Shown piece by piece: positions 1-9,520 of a DNA stretch of 11,632 nt (position 1 is the stretch's first letter; each line of letters starts with the position of its first letter). The notes beneath the pieces were generated by a model. That model did no database searches and was not told the DNA's origin. It saw only the letters and a list, made by a program, of their open reading frames with translations. Made by a program: the position numbers and the translations under genes. The DNA is from a virus. The DNA lies in UHGV virus genome UHGV-0155908, one strand, 5' to 3'.

Positions 1-47
1 CGGCCCAGATCCGCGAAATTTTAATCAGCGAGTCAGCTTGGGAAGAA

Positions 48-839
48 ATGACCTGCTTATTCGCACCTTCCTTAGCTTCCTTAGCTAATATGATACAGCC
101 TTTTGATGAATCAAAATTTATTGAGAGGTTGTACAATGATATTGATTTTATCATTACTGATCTTGAGAGAGCATCAAATAAGTATTATTGCGATGACGAG
201 GATAAAATAACTAATGTTATCGCTCTTGCTCTACGAATGAAAGGATATGATGCGACAGAACAAACAAACTCTAATGGCACTGTTGATTTAACTATTAGGG
301 ATAACACGAAGAAATTTACATGGCTGGCTGAGGCTAAAAGAGGTTATAGTTTAAACTCGGTTTTTGAGGGGCTTTTACAATTAGTTACTAGGTATTTGCG
401 AAGGGAAACGCATGCTGGATTATTAATTTATCATCAAAAAAAAGGAGCTATGGCATTCCTTAGAGATTGGCACACGTATCTTTCATCTGGTAGCTATAGG
501 AAGTATTCTAAGATCCAAGAAAGAATAGATGAGTGCGATAAGTGCTTTCGCTTGTCACCTGTTGCCTATTCAATGATTCCATCTAATAATTCTCATTACT
601 TTGATTTTACTGCGGTAAAACCGAATGATGGGCAAGTTAAAGTTCGTTGTTTTATTGCAGATTTAAACTTTGATCCAATTGATAAAAGTGCAAGAACAAA
701 TGCCAGTTTAGCAAAAGGACAATGTAAGATATCATTAACGGACATATGTACTCATTGGGAGTGTGAGGGCGAAATTCCAGGTGATGTTAATACGGTCTTT
801 CAAATGCTGAAAAACTTACACCCGGAATATTTCGTCTAA
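48..839 (+). CDS. hypothetical protein in AT-rich cargo locus; weak PD-(D/E)xK nuclease-like motif
   Basis: 263-codon ORF from the track. GC about 30% in sampled 60-nt stretches, well below the prophage core. The frame is open back to nt 3, so the true start may lie upstream of the window or at the internal Met near nt 90. Motif TVDLTIRD...(15 aa)...WLAEAKRG fits a D-x(n)-E-x-K nuclease core, by eye only. Confidence 0.55.
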   Translation: MTCLFAPSLASLANMIQPFDESKFIERLYNDIDFIITDLERASNKYYCDDEDKITNVIALALRMKGYDATEQTNSNGTVDLTIRDNTKKFTWLAEAKRGYSLNSVFEGLLQLVTRYLRRETHAGLLIYHQKKGAMAFLRDWHTYLSSGSYRKYSKIQERIDECDKCFRLSPVAYSMIPSNNSHYFDFTAVKPNDGQVKVRCFIADLNFDPIDKSARTNASLAKGQCKISLTDICTHWECEGEIPGDVNTVFQMLKNLHPEYFV

Positions 840-963
840 ATTTTTGACTTATTTAAAGTGGGACTCAATTTTATTTTTCGGTCATAAACCAATACTTGCG
901 ACTCTGTTTTATGACCACTAAATAATTTTTTTCTTTTCCTGAACCCTCGTAATCTGATATGCC

Positions 964-1100
964 TTATGCTTTGAGGTCATGGAAGGTACAATCAAGTAGC
1001 CTACCAAGTTTATTGGCAGCAGTTGTTCTGGCTTTTCGCCATGTCTCGTTAAACCCTTTGTAAGAGTACTGCTCTCCATACGCCGTTTTGGTAAGCGAAT
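964..1100 (-). pseudogene. 3' remnant of a second lambda-family integrase (about 45 codons, lacks catalytic-Tyr tail)
   Basis: Reverse-strand translation gives ...LTKTAYGEQYSYKGFNETWRKARTTAANKLGRLLDCTFHDLKA then TAA, colinear with the intact integrase segment IKTMYGERYSYKGFNEAWRKARAAAANHLGRPLDCTFHDLKA. The DNA is clearly similar (compare 1036-1090 with 2257-2311) but not identical. Homology is lost upstream of about nt 1100 and the fragment ends just before the region that encodes the catalytic tyrosine in the intact gene. Track ORF 918..1130 is an out-of-frame artefact over this remnant. Confidence 0.7.
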
Positions 1101-1384
1101 GGTGGAAGAGTTGAATGCGGAAGGAGGCACTTCTCAACTCGATGCCCGGGTGCTTGAGTTACTGGTTGAAACGTACAGTGGCATCTGGGATGGGACCGTT
1201 AAACCGAAGTGGGGGTAAATCCCTTCTCTCCGCCACTATTTAAGCATTTAGCACATCTTTAATCAGTGATACAAGTCTCGTTGAGGAAAAAGAGAAATTC
1301 ACTTAAAAAAATTCTGTTATCATTCCCTTCTTTATGCAAAAATCCCATCTATCCTTTTTTATAATAATTTTATAGAAAAACATA

Positions 1385-2050
1385 ATGAAGCACGAAAATG
1401 TTAATACAATTATTGCTCTGGCGGGACTGGGGTTAGCTGCCTTTAGTACATTTATGCAATTTAAACCTCAGCAGGATGTTTTGGATATAGTTGTAACAGC
1501 TGATAATTCTGATAACAGAGGTTTTTTCCTGAAAGGAAAACCACTTCCTGATGATATTTTTGGGGAGTCAAAAATCCTCGCTGGACCGTATAATTTGTTT
1601 TTCGAAATATCTAATAATATAAACAGACCTGTTACAATTAAGGGAGTTGACATAAAATTACTTGATGATACAGGGTCGTCAATAGATTATGGCGATATAG
1701 TTTACTCTGAAAGTGATAAAAAAACATTAACCAATCCTGTGCAATATGAACCTCATACAGTAAAAAGGTTTAACGTAGCTATCAATATACCAATCGTTTA
1801 TGGAAAAGAGTTCAATAAATGTTTTCATCCTACAGGCTTTATAGTTGAGCAGGGTAGATATTTTGGCGATATCCGTTTTTGCTATTATTCTGAGGGTGTT
1901 GATTTCTTTGGCAATAAAGTTAATTCCCGTGTTTTGGAAGGCGGTGGTATTTATTTTACTAAGGATGAAAGTAAGTATCTAAACTATAAAGTTACAGTAG
2001 TTACTGGTGATAACACTATTATCAGTAAGGTGGTCACTATTCGCGACTGA
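1385..2050 (+). CDS. hypothetical membrane-anchored protein (N-terminal hydrophobic helix) in the int-proximal cargo position
   Basis: 221-codon ORF; N-terminus TIIALAGLGLAAFSTFMQF is a likely signal-anchor or TM helix with no lipobox Cys. AT-rich like 48..839. Converges on the integrase 3' end with only 11 nt between stops. A TATAAT hexamer lies upstream at 1360-1365; the SD is weak. Confidence 0.6.
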   Translation: MKHENVNTIIALAGLGLAAFSTFMQFKPQQDVLDIVVTADNSDNRGFFLKGKPLPDDIFGESKILAGPYNLFFEISNNINRPVTIKGVDIKLLDDTGSSIDYGDIVYSESDKKTLTNPVQYEPHTVKRFNVAINIPIVYGKEFNKCFHPTGFIVEQGRYFGDIRFCYYSEGVDFFGNKVNSRVLEGGGIYFTKDESKYLNYKVTVVTGDNTIISKVVTIRD

Positions 2051-2061
2051 CCACCTGTGGG

Positions 2062-3045
2062 TTATTTATCAAGAGTAGGGGTTATCTTGATCTTTCTATC
2101 ATAGACAAGAACTTGAGATTCAGTTTTGTGACCGCTGAACTTCTGTTTATCTCTGGAAGAGCCTTCGTAGTCAGAAATGCTTTTAGCCTTCAGATCATGA
2201 AATGTGCAATCCAGAGGTCTTCCTAGATGGTTAGCTGCTGCTGCTCTTGCTTTTCGCCATGCCTCGTTAAACCCTTTGTAAGAGTAACGTTCTCCATACA
2301 TCGTTTTTATGACCGCACCATCTTCTCCCCATGCTCGACACCGATTCACTGCTGTTCGTAAACGTTCAGTCCATGCTTTTATTTGCTTAACACCCGTTTT
2401 GCCTTGCTGGATGAAAATCCCTTCATCCATTATCTGGGACCAATCCATCTTCAGAACATCGGATACCCTCGCTGCACACAGGTAAGCTATTTCCATTGCG
2501 GCTTTAACCGGTTCACTGGCGTGTTCATAAATCGCCAGGTATTCTTCATCCGTGATGTAGCGATCACGCTTTGGTTTTGGAAACTTGTCCACTCCTACAC
2601 ATGGATTACCAGGAACGAAGCCACGTTGATACCCCCAGCGATAAACTCGAGACATCGAGCTATGTTCATGGTTGGCCTGGACACGGCTTTTCTTTCCTCT
2701 GGCATCCATGTAGCGTCTGACATGTTCTGGCTTAATGGCTTTAGCCTCAGCATCACCGAAAACAGCCAGCAGATATTTTTCATGAGCCAGATAGTCTTTC
2801 TGTGTTCGCGGGGCTAAAGCTGCATAATCCGTGCTGTTTAGGAACTTCTTCCATAATTGGGAAAAGGTAAGTATATTTTTCCTGCCTTCAACCACCTTCT
2901 CAAAAGCGATCCATACCTCTGATTTTGAGGCGCCGGCAGGTGCCAGTTTTTCTGTTGTTCCACCTGGTTTCCAGTAATAACCAGAAGGGCGAAAGAAAAC
3001 GCCCTTTGGCATCCACTCGTTACCGGGTGCTCGTTTGCGACCCAT
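2062..3045 (-). CDS. int: tyrosine site-specific integrase, lambda Int family
   Basis: 327 aa. N-terminus MGRKRAPGNEW...PSGYYW parallels lambda Int MGRRRSHERRDLPPNLYIRNNGYYCYRD (arm-binding domain). Central QQGKTGVKQIKAW parallels lambda EQSKTGVKIAIP. C-terminus FHDLKAKSISDYEGS...GHKTESQVLVYDRK parallels lambda FHELRSLSARLYEKQ...GHKSDTMASQYRDDR, including the catalytic Tyr. Comparison is from recalled lambda sequence, not an alignment tool. Confidence 0.93.
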   Translation of the reverse strand: MGRKRAPGNEWMPKGVFFRPSGYYWKPGGTTEKLAPAGASKSEVWIAFEKVVEGRKNILTFSQLWKKFLNSTDYAALAPRTQKDYLAHEKYLLAVFGDAEAKAIKPEHVRRYMDARGKKSRVQANHEHSSMSRVYRWGYQRGFVPGNPCVGVDKFPKPKRDRYITDEEYLAIYEHASEPVKAAMEIAYLCAARVSDVLKMDWSQIMDEGIFIQQGKTGVKQIKAWTERLRTAVNRCRAWGEDGAVIKTMYGERYSYKGFNEAWRKARAAAANHLGRPLDCTFHDLKAKSISDYEGSSRDKQKFSGHKTESQVLVYDRKIKITPTLDK

Positions 3046-3049
3046 AATT

Positions 3050-3271
3050 TCACTCTATTGCGTTGAAGTTCATGCCCGGAGTGGGCAGAGACCCTGCTGG
3101 TGGATTTAACCTGAATGGATGATTTATATGATACCAAGTGGTTTTAACTGCACCATCGCGGCGTTCAATAAAATAAATACCATTCTGAGTTAAAACTTCT
3201 TTTTGCAGAGACTTCTGTGGTGATCCAGTAGCTTCTGCAAGTTCGTCATCAGTTAGGAAACGATCGCTCAT
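3050..3271 (-). CDS. xis: putative excisionase / directionality factor (by position; sequence unlike lambda Xis)
   Basis: 73-aa ORF immediately upstream of int on the same strand (stop 3052-3050, int ATG 3045-3043). GGAGA lies 7 nt upstream of its ATG. Small and basic/aromatic. Function is inferred from the conserved xis-int arrangement only. Confidence 0.6.
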   Translation of the reverse strand: MSDRFLTDDELAEATGSPQKSLQKEVLTQNGIYFIERRDGAVKTTWYHINHPFRLNPPAGSLPTPGMNFNAIE

Positions 3272-3329
3272 GAGACGTTCTCCACTTAGCCCAGCTGCAC
3301 CCAGGCTGTAACATCAAACAACGATCCGA

Positions 3330-3446
3330 CTAGTGCCATAGAGTTGCGATAATGCACCGAACTGTGGGCGTCTTTTTGTTGTTACCTTTGGCTATTTCAG
3401 CGCTAGTAGTGTTGGGGTGAGCCTGGAGATATTCAAATACGTTCAT
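3330..3446 (-). CDS. small ORF, 38 aa (MNVFEYLQAHPNTTSAEIAKGNNKKTPTVRCIIATLWH), possible small HTH protein
   Basis: Translated by hand; below the track size cut-off. Its ATG (3446-3444) overlaps the stop of the upstream small ORF in an ATGA arrangement. The segment TTSAEIAKG resembles an HTH start. Weak SD (AAAGG). Confidence 0.3.
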   Translation of the reverse strand: MNVFEYLQAHPNTTSAEIAKGNNKKTPTVRCIIATLWH

Positions 3447-5530: not shown

Positions 5531-6711
5531 GGTTTTACCCTCGTTAAGGCGGCTGCAACCGCCGAACTTTCTCCATACACAACAGAGAAGAGCACCTGCA
5601 TTGGTCGGCGGCTTGCAGGGACCGCTTTCTTTTTGCCCGGGTGGATTGGGTTATGAGCCCGTCGCCCGGTGATGCTCTTTTCTGTTGCGTAAAAAGGGCG
5701 GTACCGAGGTAGAACATTATCTTCGTCCCCCTTGCATAAGGTTGAAGGCCCAGGTACCGCCAAGACTACACACATGGAACTACGGTTATCACAGTCCTAA
5801 GCGTGATTTGGTTGTGGTTGCTGGTGCTGAACTCCAGCTCAGTGGCGCGGTGTTTCAATATCGTAACCGCCCGTTCCATCCGCGTTCGATCAGTCCGTAT
5901 GCTCGCTTAGAACGTTTCGCCTGCTTATCTTTTCTCAACCGTTTGACGGTCAGCCCCGCCATTCACCACAACGAAGAGAGCACTGCCGGTATCCGAATTG
6001 AACGGACCTTTTCGTTGCCCATCACCGCTATCTGTATAGCGGTGGCAGGGATTGAACCTGCCGTTATGCCTTGCTCGTCAATGCTCTCATCGTTGTGTGC
6101 TGACCTTACAGCCAGCATGGTTGGAATGAAGACGCATCACGACTTTTCACCAACTGGGCGGGATCACCATGAAAGAGCCGCCCCTTTAGCCTTTCATGCT
6201 CCCCATCTTTCTAGGTAGTCAATGCCTCCAGTTGGGCATACAACCTTCGGTTATCGCTCCGTCGTCAGCGCCACTCTCCAGGACATTTATAAGGACCGTC
6301 TCCAAGTGGTAACTCTTCCAGTCCCGGTAAGCATCCTGCGAGATGCTTACCATGACCGGCTGATCTTCCCTGAAAAAGGCTGGCGGTTACCGGACAAACG
6401 GGAAAACACCGGGCCGCCAGAACAGGGAGTTACTTGTTATTGCTTTGGCCTGCTTTTAACCACATCAGGCGCGGTGGTAGGTATCTTCGGGCGGGGTGCT
6501 AAGGGGGTGATTAGCCCTTGCCCTTAACACTCCTGCTGGTTTTGGTATTCCTGGCTTGGGTATCGCCACCAGCTATAGGAATTTGACTACGAGTTGCGGT
6601 TAATCAGGCCGCGCCTCTGTTACCCCTCCCGAAGACACCTGTCAGCGAATCATCCGGTTATTCATATGCCACCGGCGGCTACTTCGTGGGCGTCCTGCCT
6701 GTTCGCTGTTG
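5531..6711 (-). other. ORF-poor, GC-rich, hairpin-rich tract between putative pL and the first early-left gene; candidate large structured RNA or leader
   Basis: No minus-strand ORF of 60 aa or more across about 1.2 kb (only 5527..5775, rejected). Perfect hairpins at 6023-6044 (9 bp stem, 4-nt loop), 6326-6351 (10 bp stem, 6-nt loop) and 6380-6420 (7 bp outer plus 4 bp inner stem). On the minus strand 6045-6061 reads GCAGG-TTCAATC-CCTGC, a tRNA T-arm-like stem-loop. GC about 58% in a sampled 60-nt stretch. Confidence 0.3.
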
Positions 6712-6719
6712 ATGAATAA

Positions 6720-6748
6720 AATCTAACTTAACTTAGCTTTTAGATCAA
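6720..6748 (-). promoter_or_regulatory. putative pL-type early leftward promoter
   Basis: On the minus strand: TTGATC (-35; + coordinates 6743-6748), 17-nt spacer, TAGATT (-10; 6720-6725). Lies just beyond the 3' end of the repressor gene and overlaps the operator repeats. Confidence 0.4.
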
Positions 6749-6774
6749 GAAAAAACACCAAACTATTCTTAGCT
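6721..6774. promoter_or_regulatory. OL-type operator repeats (CTTAGCT half-sites)
   Basis: ATCTAActtaACTTAGCT at 6721-6738 matches the OR copy at 7503-7520 in 15 of 18 positions. Inverted ends ATCTAA (6721-6726) and TTAGAT (6740-6745). A second CTTAGCT at 6768-6774. Confidence 0.45.
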
Positions 6775-6802
6775 TGATGTTAAGAGGAAGGTTAGAGGTG
6801 GG

Positions 6803-8673: not shown

Positions 8674-9520
8674 ATTAACCGGCTACGTATGGGATGGTTG
8701 CGCGGCGTCGGGCATGAAGTTGTCTAGTGTCGCGATCATGGCTCGCCTCGCTGATTTCAGCAGCGATGAGGGAGTGTGCTGGCCGTCCATTGAAACTATT
8801 GCTCGCCAGCTTGGCGCAGGGCCGAGCACGATCAGAACGGCAATCGCAAAGCTTGAAAAAGATGGCTGGCTCACGCGTACACAGCGCCGTAATGGTAACC
8901 GTAATGCGTCGAACGTGTACCGCCTGAATGTGGCGAAACTTCAGGCTGCCGCATTTTCTCAACTGTCAGATTCTGACACGTCAAAATCTGACGCATCAAA
9001 TTTTGACGCCTCAAAAACTGACCCGTCGAAATCTGGCAAAAACGGCGGTTTTGACCCGTCAGAATCTGGCGGGGATCCGTCAGTAAAATCAAAACAAGAT
9101 CCACAAGTAACTTCAAAACCCTCTTGTCCGGTTGCGGCGCAACCAGACCCTGAAGTCGTGATTACTGATCAGGCAATTTTGGTTCTGACCCATTTGAACC
9201 AAATCAGCGGATCCCGGTATCAGAAATCAAAAACATCCCTGGAGAACATCCGTGCCCGACTGCGTGAGGGATACAGCGTTGCAGACCTGCAACTTGTTAT
9301 CGACCTGAAGCATGAGCACTGGCACGAGAACGACGAGCAGTACCAGTACATGCGACCGGAAACGCTGTTTGGCCCGAAGAAATTCGAGAGCTATCTGCAA
9401 AGCGCTACCCGCTGGGAGCAGAAGGGACGGCCTAAACGTGCTGACTGGGGAGCGAAAAAGCGCGATGTGATGGCTTTTGGTCCGGTTGAAACAACGATTC
9501 CAGAGGGGTTCAGAGGATGA
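8663..9520 (+). CDS. phage replication initiator, lambda O-like (N-terminal HTH domain, iteron-encoded linker, conserved phage C-terminal domain)
   Basis: 285 aa. N-terminal HTH region (PSIETIARQLGAGPSTIRTAIAKLEKDGWL). Low-complexity S/D/K linker encoded by DNA iterons. C-terminal ...RARLREGYSVADLQLVIDLKHEHW...RPETLFGPKKFESYLQ matches the conserved C-terminus of phage replisome-organiser proteins as I recall it. Confidence 0.85.
   Translation: MSTKLTGYVWDGCAASGMKLSSVAIMARLADFSSDEGVCWPSIETIARQLGAGPSTIRTAIAKLEKDGWLTRTQRRNGNRNASNVYRLNVAKLQAAAFSQLSDSDTSKSDASNFDASKTDPSKSGKNGGFDPSESGGDPSVKSKQDPQVTSKPSCPVAAQPDPEVVITDQAILVLTHLNQISGSRYQKSKTSLENIRARLREGYSVADLQLVIDLKHEHWHENDEQYQYMRPETLFGPKKFESYLQSATRWEQKGRPKRADWGAKKRDVMAFGPVETTIPEGFRG
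8974..9064. repeat. origin-type iterons inside the O-like gene (TGAC-N-C-N-TC-R-AAA units, 15-bp period)
   Basis: Copies at 8974-8986 (tgacacgtcaaaa), 8989-9000 (tgacgcatcaaa), 9004-9017 (tgacgcctcaaaaa), 9019-9031 (tgacccgtcgaaa) and 9052-9064 (tgacccgtcagaa), with a degenerate copy near 9034. Followed by an A-rich stretch at 9076-9120. Same logic as ori-lambda within gene O. Confidence 0.6.

Follow-up and report, generated by a model that had tools for sequence, protein, structure and literature searches.

The closest described relatives of the genes discussed here belong to the variable cargo of prophage hotspots. The interval between gpA and gpQ is a P2 defence hotspot (Rousset et al. 2022, PMC9122126), and Table S5B of the same study lists P2-hotspot system #145, 'DUF5939 | DpnII-MboI', with 14 occurrences. 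In a 2026 follow-up, six of eight randomly chosen unknown P4-hotspot loci protected against phages (PMC13586616). Here we analyze the virus genome UHGV-0155908, a stretch of 11,632 nucleotides that is called the window throughout, in which two AT-rich open reading frames (ORFs), ORF1 (48..839) and ORF2 (1385..2050), flank an integrase remnant beside an intact integrase gene, int. ORF1 is a truncated copy of gene C, the last gene of an operon, A-B-C, that encodes the same three proteins as system #145; ORF2 encodes a predicted membrane protein. Loci labelled L001 and onward are comparison contigs and genomes, and the window itself is identical to L003, the European Nucleotide Archive (ENA) metagenome contig ERZ773500 NODE_1199.

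By BLASTP, C is 38% identical to its counterpart in system #145 (2e-62), A 32% (2e-67), and B 26% (2e-14), with A and B taken from the intact allele in L001. Both systems are cargo of prophage hotspots. P2-like phages carry system #145 between gpA and gpQ, whereas the cassette described here is a divergent subfamily found in the slot between an attachment site (att) and the integrase gene of a lambdoid, ST64B-like element, and in the window it is cut down to a gene C truncated by an insertion sequence (IS). The genes belong, as uncharacterised members, to a familiar type of locus, the phage-borne accessory and defence hotspots, in which A-B-C is already catalogued. The predicted catalytic fold and the E/D/ExK motif of gene C are common to BamHI/BglII-type enzymes, McrC, Hachiman HamA, and CdiA-CT EC869; in McrBC and Hachiman the nuclease acts with partner proteins, a likeness to gene C with A and B.

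Membrane proteins of prophage superinfection exclusion include the lactococcal Sie2009-type proteins encoded near the integrase gene, P22 SieA, T4 Imm, and HK97 gp15. ORF2 is likewise a small prophage-encoded membrane protein in an integrase-proximal slot, and like them it is presumably produced by the lysogen and exposed at its envelope. It has, however, no sequence or structural similarity to any of them, and to our knowledge an immunoglobulin-like (Ig-like) periplasmic domain with a conserved cysteine pair, as predicted for ORF2, is not a described exclusion-protein architecture. PdpSau and AbiP resemble ORF2 in being single-gene, N-terminally anchored, prophage-borne anti-phage proteins, but their C-terminal domains are cytoplasmic, basic, and similar to the oligonucleotide/oligosaccharide-binding fold (PMC10127798), whereas that of ORF2 is acidic, a beta-sandwich, and predicted to be periplasmic.

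Two phage elements in tandem at tRNA-Ser(CGA)

Two phage-derived elements, integrated one behind the other at tRNA-Ser(CGA) next to mtfA on a chromosome of the E. coli/Citrobacter type, meet in positions 1-2060 of the window. The features of this junction are as follows, with the strand in brackets.

1..71 (+): right end of ISKpn26, an IS5-family element, from its inverted repeat, near-identity to annotated copies, and junction alignments
72..75 (no strand): TTAG, 4-bp target of the IS insertion, within codons 10-11 of gene C, from alignment with uninterrupted alleles
72..839 (+): codons 11-265 and stop codon of gene C, a putative PD-(D/E)XK nuclease with a helical C-terminal part
848..1098 (-): integrase pseudogene, a 3' remnant corresponding to Int residues 244-327, from blastx against the window's own Int
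1211..1236 (+): degenerate copy of the tRNA-Ser(CGA) 3' end, att core and element junction, aligning to L001 6970-6997
1237..1290 (+): phage-side att arm of the resident prophage, ~74-78% identical to the arm after the real tRNA-Ser at the start of the decayed element
1385..2050 (+): ORF2, 221 residues, sole cargo gene of the resident prophage; predicted bitopic membrane protein with a transmembrane (TM) helix at ~3-26 and an Ig-like beta-sandwich
2062..3045 (-): int, the intact tyrosine integrase gene of the resident ST64B/SfII-like prophage, from Pfam Phage_integrase (6.5e-12), phrog_1, and context

The order of the genes is seen in the 728-kb contig L001, where tRNA-Asn, mtfA, tRNA-Ser(CGA), A-B-C, the integrase remnant, ORF2, and int follow one another. 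The structure reads, from the tRNA gene, as a phage arm, A-B-C, and an integrase stub, followed by the att copy, a second phage arm, ORF2, int, and the rest of the prophage. Each cargo set is bounded by an att site on one side and an integrase stop codon on the other, with the end of ORF1 8 nt from the remnant and the end of ORF2 11 nt from int.

Two features between the ORFs define the boundary. The first is the integrase remnant, which had been recognized in a preliminary description of this DNA. It matches the intact Int at ~73% amino-acid identity in two frames, with one in-frame stop and one frameshift, and its DNA is 74% identical to int; a full-length frame with a catalytic domain was not found, and with only the last 84 codons present, the remnant is a pseudogene. 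The second is the att copy. Window positions 1211-1290 repeat the last 15 nt of the tRNA and ~55 nt downstream of it at 74-78% identity, and the sole CTCTCCGCCA in the window, at 1226, lies inside the att core. Because this tRNA-Ser 3'-end copy at 1211-1236 separates them, ORF1 and ORF2 belong to two elements. The left element is an older, decayed prophage, of which the att-proximal cargo (A-B-C) and the integrase stub are left over. The right element is the resident ST64B-like prophage, which carries ORF2 as a single gene in the slot between attL and int. Three side observations concern the same DNA: the ~110 nt at 1099-1210, from the truncated end of the integrase remnant to the att copy, may be the far end of the decayed prophage; positions 1218-1311 have a 77.6% match to unannotated DNA of Salmonella plasmids; and in three other loci (L002 and L004 at 2040-2477, L015 at 8678-9148) the integrase beside ORF2 is cut to 145-156 residues and followed by unrelated phage DNA, so that the survival of cargo plus an integrase stub is repeated for ORF2.

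The base composition agrees with what had been described, AT-rich cargo beside a GC-richer phage core. The guanine-plus-cytosine (GC) content is 35.3% in 72-839, 34.5% in ORF2 (1385-2050), and 25.7% in the spacer 1237-1384, against 45.9% in int and 51.2% in the remaining phage DNA (3272-11632). Both genes lie directly downstream of an integrase stop codon, and the view that they are foreign cargo in an integrase-proximal slot holds.

The preliminary description had also read the two ORFs as one small defence or exclusion module. They are indeed adjacent, AT-rich, and on the same strand, and they are found together in L001-L005. Yet an integrase pseudogene and an att copy stand between them; ORF1 has A and B as its partners, and ORF2 is missing, in at least 12 independent contexts; at most ORF2 loci, another cassette or none takes the place of ORF1; and the cassette on the ORF1 side has been swapped while ORF2 remained. 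A two-gene module of the resident prophage is, in our judgement, very improbable. What had been observed was largely right but mis-delimited, with the IS end and the copy of the tRNA-Ser 3' end missed, and the interpretation was right on foreign integrase-proximal cargo and wrong on a single module.

Truncation of gene C by ISKpn26

The window starts inside an IS, whose terminal inverted repeat at 56-71 is the reverse complement of GGAAGGTGCGAATAAG. Bases 1-82 match DNA present in multiple copies on chromosomes and plasmids in 1887 of 5426 complete E. coli genomes; apart from the IS, the locus is absent from all 5426. One genome with such a copy, NZ_CP032986, has it immediately after a gene annotated 'IS5-like element ISKpn26 family transposase', and positions 1-71 (or 82) are 97-99% identical to copies downstream of annotated ISKpn26-family transposases; the transposase gene itself is outside the window. 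That the IS stops between 71 and 72 follows from two alignments, one to L001 and L005, whose alleles are uninterrupted, and one to an independent copy of ISKpn26. Elements of the IS5 family duplicate a tetranucleotide of the form YTAR, and a second copy of TTAG is expected outside the window. We rejected a longer IS end that matches of window positions 72-96 in E. coli might indicate; these are a chance similarity at another ISKpn26 target site.

Since bases 1-71 are IS DNA, the frame 48-839 is a 5'-truncated chimera. Both ORFs exist at the coordinates first reported, but the ATG at 48 lies within the IS and starts eight IS-encoded codons that replace the first ten of gene C. The intact gene in L001 and L005 has 265 codons and starts MSQLNLPPEV-LASLANMIQ. 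Metagenome contigs L002 and L004 begin at the same junction of IS and gene C, which makes this an established allele rather than an assembly artefact. An IS-separated gene C with an intact reading frame occurs in at least three independent samples.

The A-B-C operon and its putative nuclease

The operon consists of A (~355 residues), B (~145 residues, acidic), and C (~265 residues), and neighbouring reading frames overlap or abut. It is intact in L001 (361, 146, and 265 residues) and in L005, in both beside tRNA-Ser and mtfA; the complete three-gene cassette is absent from the window, where ISKpn26 interrupts it and only C from codon 11 is present. B is acidic in all orthologues examined, with an isoelectric point (pI) of 4.5-4.8. 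Neither A nor B has a match in Pfam, NCBIfam, PADLOC, or the Protein Data Bank (PDB), and the only PHROGs that match them are of function unknown.

Gene C has a small family, with 21 clusters among 5.8 billion proteins. Across 21 sequences of 31-87% identity, E53, D82, E97-x-K99, and Q113 are invariant (numbering of the intact gene), and the window copy keeps the putative catalytic residues, with DDEDK at 49, VDL at 79, and EAK at 95 (numbering of the chimeric ORF). A confident AlphaFold2 (AF2) model predicts a restriction endonuclease-like fold of the order alpha-beta-beta-beta-alpha-beta. The nuclease-like motif noted earlier in ORF1 is borne out by the invariant E...D...ExK pattern, and gene C is a member of the PD-(D/E)XK superfamily by motif and predicted fold. 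The Pfam family Mrr_cat (PF04471) reaches 14 bits (E 0.056) over residues 54-107 only, below its gathering threshold of 21 bits, and we therefore file ORF1 in the superfamily and not in the Mrr family. Nothing scored above threshold for ORF1 or gene C in searches of PADLOC, Pfam, NCBIfam, and PDB sequences.

Homologues of gene C with 30-47% identity are always preceded by the same two genes, A and B. The carriers include a P4-like satellite in Rouxiella, Cronobacter, and an integrase island in Aeromonas; a P2-like prophage has the operon exactly between the portal gene and gpA, in Stx1a-converting phages it is flanked by Q and stx1A, and seven prophages whose integrases are intact and of the same family as the window's have it in their att-int slot. 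A-B-C thereby recurs in locations of defence hotspots, namely the P2 gpA-gpQ interval, a P4-like satellite, and an att-int slot that also houses AbiL. Two copies are worth recording. In phage Stx1_499 (LC567825; L024 3550-5657), divergent genes for proteins of 350, 130, and 221 residues lie between Q and stx1A on the opposite strand, and the nuclease lacks the C-terminal extension. In Vibrio phage 10N.247.311.62_PE001 (L025 1351-3626), a small tailless temperate phage of the Vinavirales, a cassette of 339, 140, and 276 residues adjoins the integrase gene; the cassette therefore moves between very different types of virus. Literature searches by accession number and by 'DUF5939' returned nothing, the DefensePredictor supplements do not contain these proteins, and none of the new systems named in PMC13586616 matches when compared by description.

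The make-up of the operon bears on whether it might instead be a toxin-antitoxin-like module for addiction or stabilization, in which the acidic B neutralizes C and no phage protection results. B is small and acidic in every orthologue, the gene overlaps suggest tight co-expression, the cassette survived the decay of its prophage, and non-defence cargo does occur in P2 hotspots. However, a third large conserved protein such as A is atypical of simple pairs, and several samples tolerate an intact C frame cut off by the IS, which a free toxin would hardly allow if the gene were expressed. Many modules of this kind are themselves anti-phage, which makes the alternative overlap with the defence function that we favour for A-B-C. 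As a function without protection, we consider addiction improbable.

ORF2, a predicted bitopic membrane protein

The AF2 model of ORF2, with a mean predicted local distance difference test (pLDDT) score of 91.8, has a helix at residues 3-26 followed by a beta-sandwich. The N-terminal membrane anchor proposed earlier is in agreement with this prediction, and its place between att and int makes ORF2 a prophage-encoded membrane protein by prediction. Residues conserved in the family are the N-terminal MKHExxN...QFxPxxD, N77, C146, C166, and D173-x-x-G-N; the pair Cys146/Cys166 is kept in at least 90% of sequences. Where the N-terminus of a homologue is longer, the extension is rich in K/R; this and the conserved cysteine pair together suggest that the N-terminus is inside and the Ig-like domain periplasmic. 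The protein is acidic (pI 5.7).

The family is restricted. A word-index search found four clusters and an exhaustive profile search, run against 1.84 billion representatives, gave 58, almost all of ~220 residues, while a contig scan with a narrower family alignment found three loci, one of them frameshifted. The cluster at ≥90% identity comes mostly from Citrobacter freundii and C. farmeri, with some E. coli, and all its members are named 'hypothetical protein'. ORF2 homologues are always on mobile elements. In Dickeya fangzhongdai (L006 8001-9191), a homologue with 54% identity is convergent to a ToxN-family gene 34 nt away, on an island that also carries transposases and a MobA relaxase. No match to ORF2 was found in PADLOC, Pfam, PHROGs, NCBIfam, or PDB sequences; tblastn found none in 50,697 phage records or 72,556 plasmid records, and a fold search of BFVD gave nothing at E ≤0.001. 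The earlier statement that neither protein could be named holds for ORF1 and ORF2 alike, as none of the searches of PADLOC, Pfam, NCBIfam, and PDB sequences yields a functional assignment. Two candidate identities were rejected: a gtr-like serotype-conversion protein, on account of the single TM helix and the lack of a glycosyltransferase fold, and a lipoprotein, on account of the missing lipobox cysteine.

Comparison of the window allele with those of L009, L011, and L030 gave a ratio of nonsynonymous to synonymous divergence (dN/dS) of 0.16-0.18, from which ORF2 is under purifying selection. Against L009, synonymous divergence is 0.135 in ORF2 and 0.014 in the adjacent int, a tenfold gap, and the ORF2 allele therefore has a history different from that of the integrase gene 11 nt away. 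These values also bear on the suspicion that the ORFs are chance frames in AT-rich junk left by prophage decay. The region does contain a pseudogene and an IS, and its promoter and terminator signals do not rise above chance. Yet members of both families from different genera share 30-55% identity and invariant motifs, the dN/dS of ORF2 is as low as 0.16, and both proteins have confident AF2 folds. The chance-frame reading is already refuted for both coding sequences, and we give it next to no credence.

The predicted architecture of ORF2 invites a further alternative, that of a membrane-anchored abortive-infection effector with a cytoplasmic domain, similar to AbiP and PdpSau, that kills or arrests the infected cell. 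PdpSau (278 residues, TM helix 5-27; PMC10127798) is a precedent to which the architecture of ORF2 is superficially similar. The cytoplasmic domains of PdpSau and AbiP are, however, positively charged and bind nucleic acids (PMC10127798), whereas the acidic beta-sandwich, the cysteine pair, and the K/R-rich N-termini of homologues point to a periplasmic domain in ORF2. This role is quite unlikely.

Turnover of the att-int slot

A comparison of this slot across related prophages had been proposed in the preliminary description, and we carried it out on 80 IMG/VR prophages whose integrases are 81-98% identical to that of the window. The att-int slot is a variable hotspot, as had been anticipated, but it is mostly vacant: in ~45 of the 80 prophages, and likewise in E. 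coli CUWW10, the att core lies 100-125 nt past the int stop codon, and we count these slots as empty for that reason. The others hold several different cassettes, with a GC content of 33-41% in filled slots. Four kinds of content were seen.

First, the A-B-C operon stands beside an intact integrase gene in the seven loci mentioned above. Second, a pair of proteins of 72 and 176 residues, without Pfam or PADLOC match, is encoded downstream of int in L030, L034, L079, and L096. Third, some slots encode a TM protein, a DUF4325 protein, and a protein of 292-311 residues without family match. Fourth, L067 (1939-3758) carries AbiLi/AbiLii (AAA_21 and RloB; PADLOC 1e-16 and 2e-8) in a prophage whose integrase is 87% identical to that of the window.

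The slot of the decayed element also exchanges cassettes cleanly between conserved flanks. It holds A-B-C in L001, a cassette of GHKL-ATPase, DUF4325 protein, and 152-residue protein in L009-L016, and the 72- and 176-residue pair in L030, where this pair takes the place of A-B-C with ORF2 adjoining. The GHKL-ATPase cassette is the occupant of the remnant slot in most strains that carry ORF2. In L009 (5522-7444), and also in L010-L016, L038, and L072, it comprises a GHKL-type ATPase of 370 residues (HATPase_c, 9e-5), a STAS-like DUF4325 protein of 117 residues, and a 152-residue protein. It has no PADLOC match. The type HATPase_c|DUF4325 is P4-hotspot system #69, an item of the P4/P2 hotspots (Rousset 2022). 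The AbiL and HATPase_c|DUF4325 cassettes occupy the same att-int slot in related prophages (L067, L038, L072, L009) and are unrelated in sequence to ORF1 and ORF2; they are evidence only for the type of gene that the slot collects.

What the slot collects is also relevant to the possibility that ORF2 is a lysogenic-conversion factor facing the periplasm and affecting envelope properties, stress tolerance, or host interaction. Periplasmic domains of the Ig-like/E-set kind occur in many envelope and adhesion proteins, att-proximal morons include genes for virulence and serotype conversion, a related degraded prophage has gtr-like glycosyltransferases nearby, and ORF2 resembles no known exclusion protein. 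On the other hand, related prophages carry hotspot cassettes and a known abortive-infection system in this slot, one ORF2 homologue abuts ToxN, the family is tiny and confined to mobile elements, and its tenfold excess of synonymous divergence over int fits the turnover of a hotspot. We regard conversion as a serious but less probable contender, and superinfection exclusion remains the function that we favour for ORF2.

Candidate functions of the cargo

The anti-phage roles of A-B-C and ORF2 are candidate functions that we infer. With moderate confidence, we favour an explanation that combines the tandem anatomy, A-B-C as a defence cassette, and ORF2 as a protein acting at the level of the envelope. 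A-B-C would be an anti-phage defence cassette in which C is a DNA-cutting effector and A and B are sensing or restraining partners. Since the IS has parted C from its two partner genes, the cassette is probably inactive or deregulated in the window. ORF2 would reside in the inner membrane, with its N-terminus inside and a disulfide-bonded Ig-like domain in the periplasm, and may act at the envelope, most likely in superinfection exclusion, by hindering adsorption or genome entry of other phages. Both slots would stay filled because the cargo benefits the lysogen, and this benefit would explain how cargo and an integrase stub outlive the rest of a prophage.

Several points weigh against this explanation. 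As to the genes in general, no family in PADLOC-DB v2.0 matches ORF1, ORF2, A, B, or C at E ≤1, a scan of the window for sigma-70 promoters and terminators gave nothing exceeding chance, and a search of the literature found no published phage-protection test for these genes. As to A-B-C, the end of the window falls inside the IS, and hence A and B are seen only in other alleles; the roles given to them are guesses, because neither has recognizable domains. System #145 appears to have been catalogued only, as the main text of PMC9122126 does not mention it; about one third of the hotspot systems cloned in that study protected, and P2 hotspots also hold non-defence cargo such as partition systems and a cytolethal distending toxin (PMC9122126). 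As to ORF2, its fold is a generic beta-sandwich, its topology is a prediction from the positive-inside rule and the cysteine pair, it has no similarity to annotated exclusion proteins in PHROGs or BFVD, and its links to defence locations are the att-int slot and the ToxN neighbour only.

A bolder version of the explanation would make the att-int slot of this tRNA-Ser prophage family an undescribed defence hotspot with two new systems, a BamHI-like nuclease under the control of A and B and a new class of ORF2-type exclusion proteins that block genome entry by means of a membrane-anchored Ig-like domain, disulfide-bonded and located in the periplasm. We hold this to be possible but doubtful.

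The surrounding prophage

From ~2060 rightwards, the window is the early region of a temperate phage, with int, a DUF4224 protein, DUF2303/YfdP-like genes, a CI-like repressor, Cro, a replication protein, and Dam. One further feature adjoins int:

3050..3271 (-): DUF4224 protein, placed like an excisionase upstream of int, from the precomputed Pfam assignment PF13986

The right-hand phage part is ~79-83% identical to phages such as Eeyore, phiNP, and ST64B, and deposited phages have no match anywhere in window positions 72-3400. The window contains neither a tRNA gene nor a match in Rfam. The 1.27 kb (5531-6802) that separate the YfdP-like gene from that of the CI-like repressor contain no confidently assignable gene and no Rfam match; the only ORFs there encode 177 and 101 residues, both on the + strand.

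Implications

For the window itself, one of the pair of 'unknown proteins' is a fragment that the IS has disrupted, and ORF1 and ORF2 are not to be cloned or read as a unit. If the proposed functions are true, the locus and its relatives would supply two or three easily cloned anti-phage candidates: A-B-C, ORF2, and the GHKL-ATPase/DUF4325 cassette. The tandem arrangement shows cargo and an integrase stub outliving a prophage, followed by the exchange of cassettes between conserved flanks. Under the same condition, the integrase-proximal slot of lambdoid tRNA-Ser prophages would extend the list of defence hotspots borne by phages, so far made up of the cos-proximal loci of P2 and P4.

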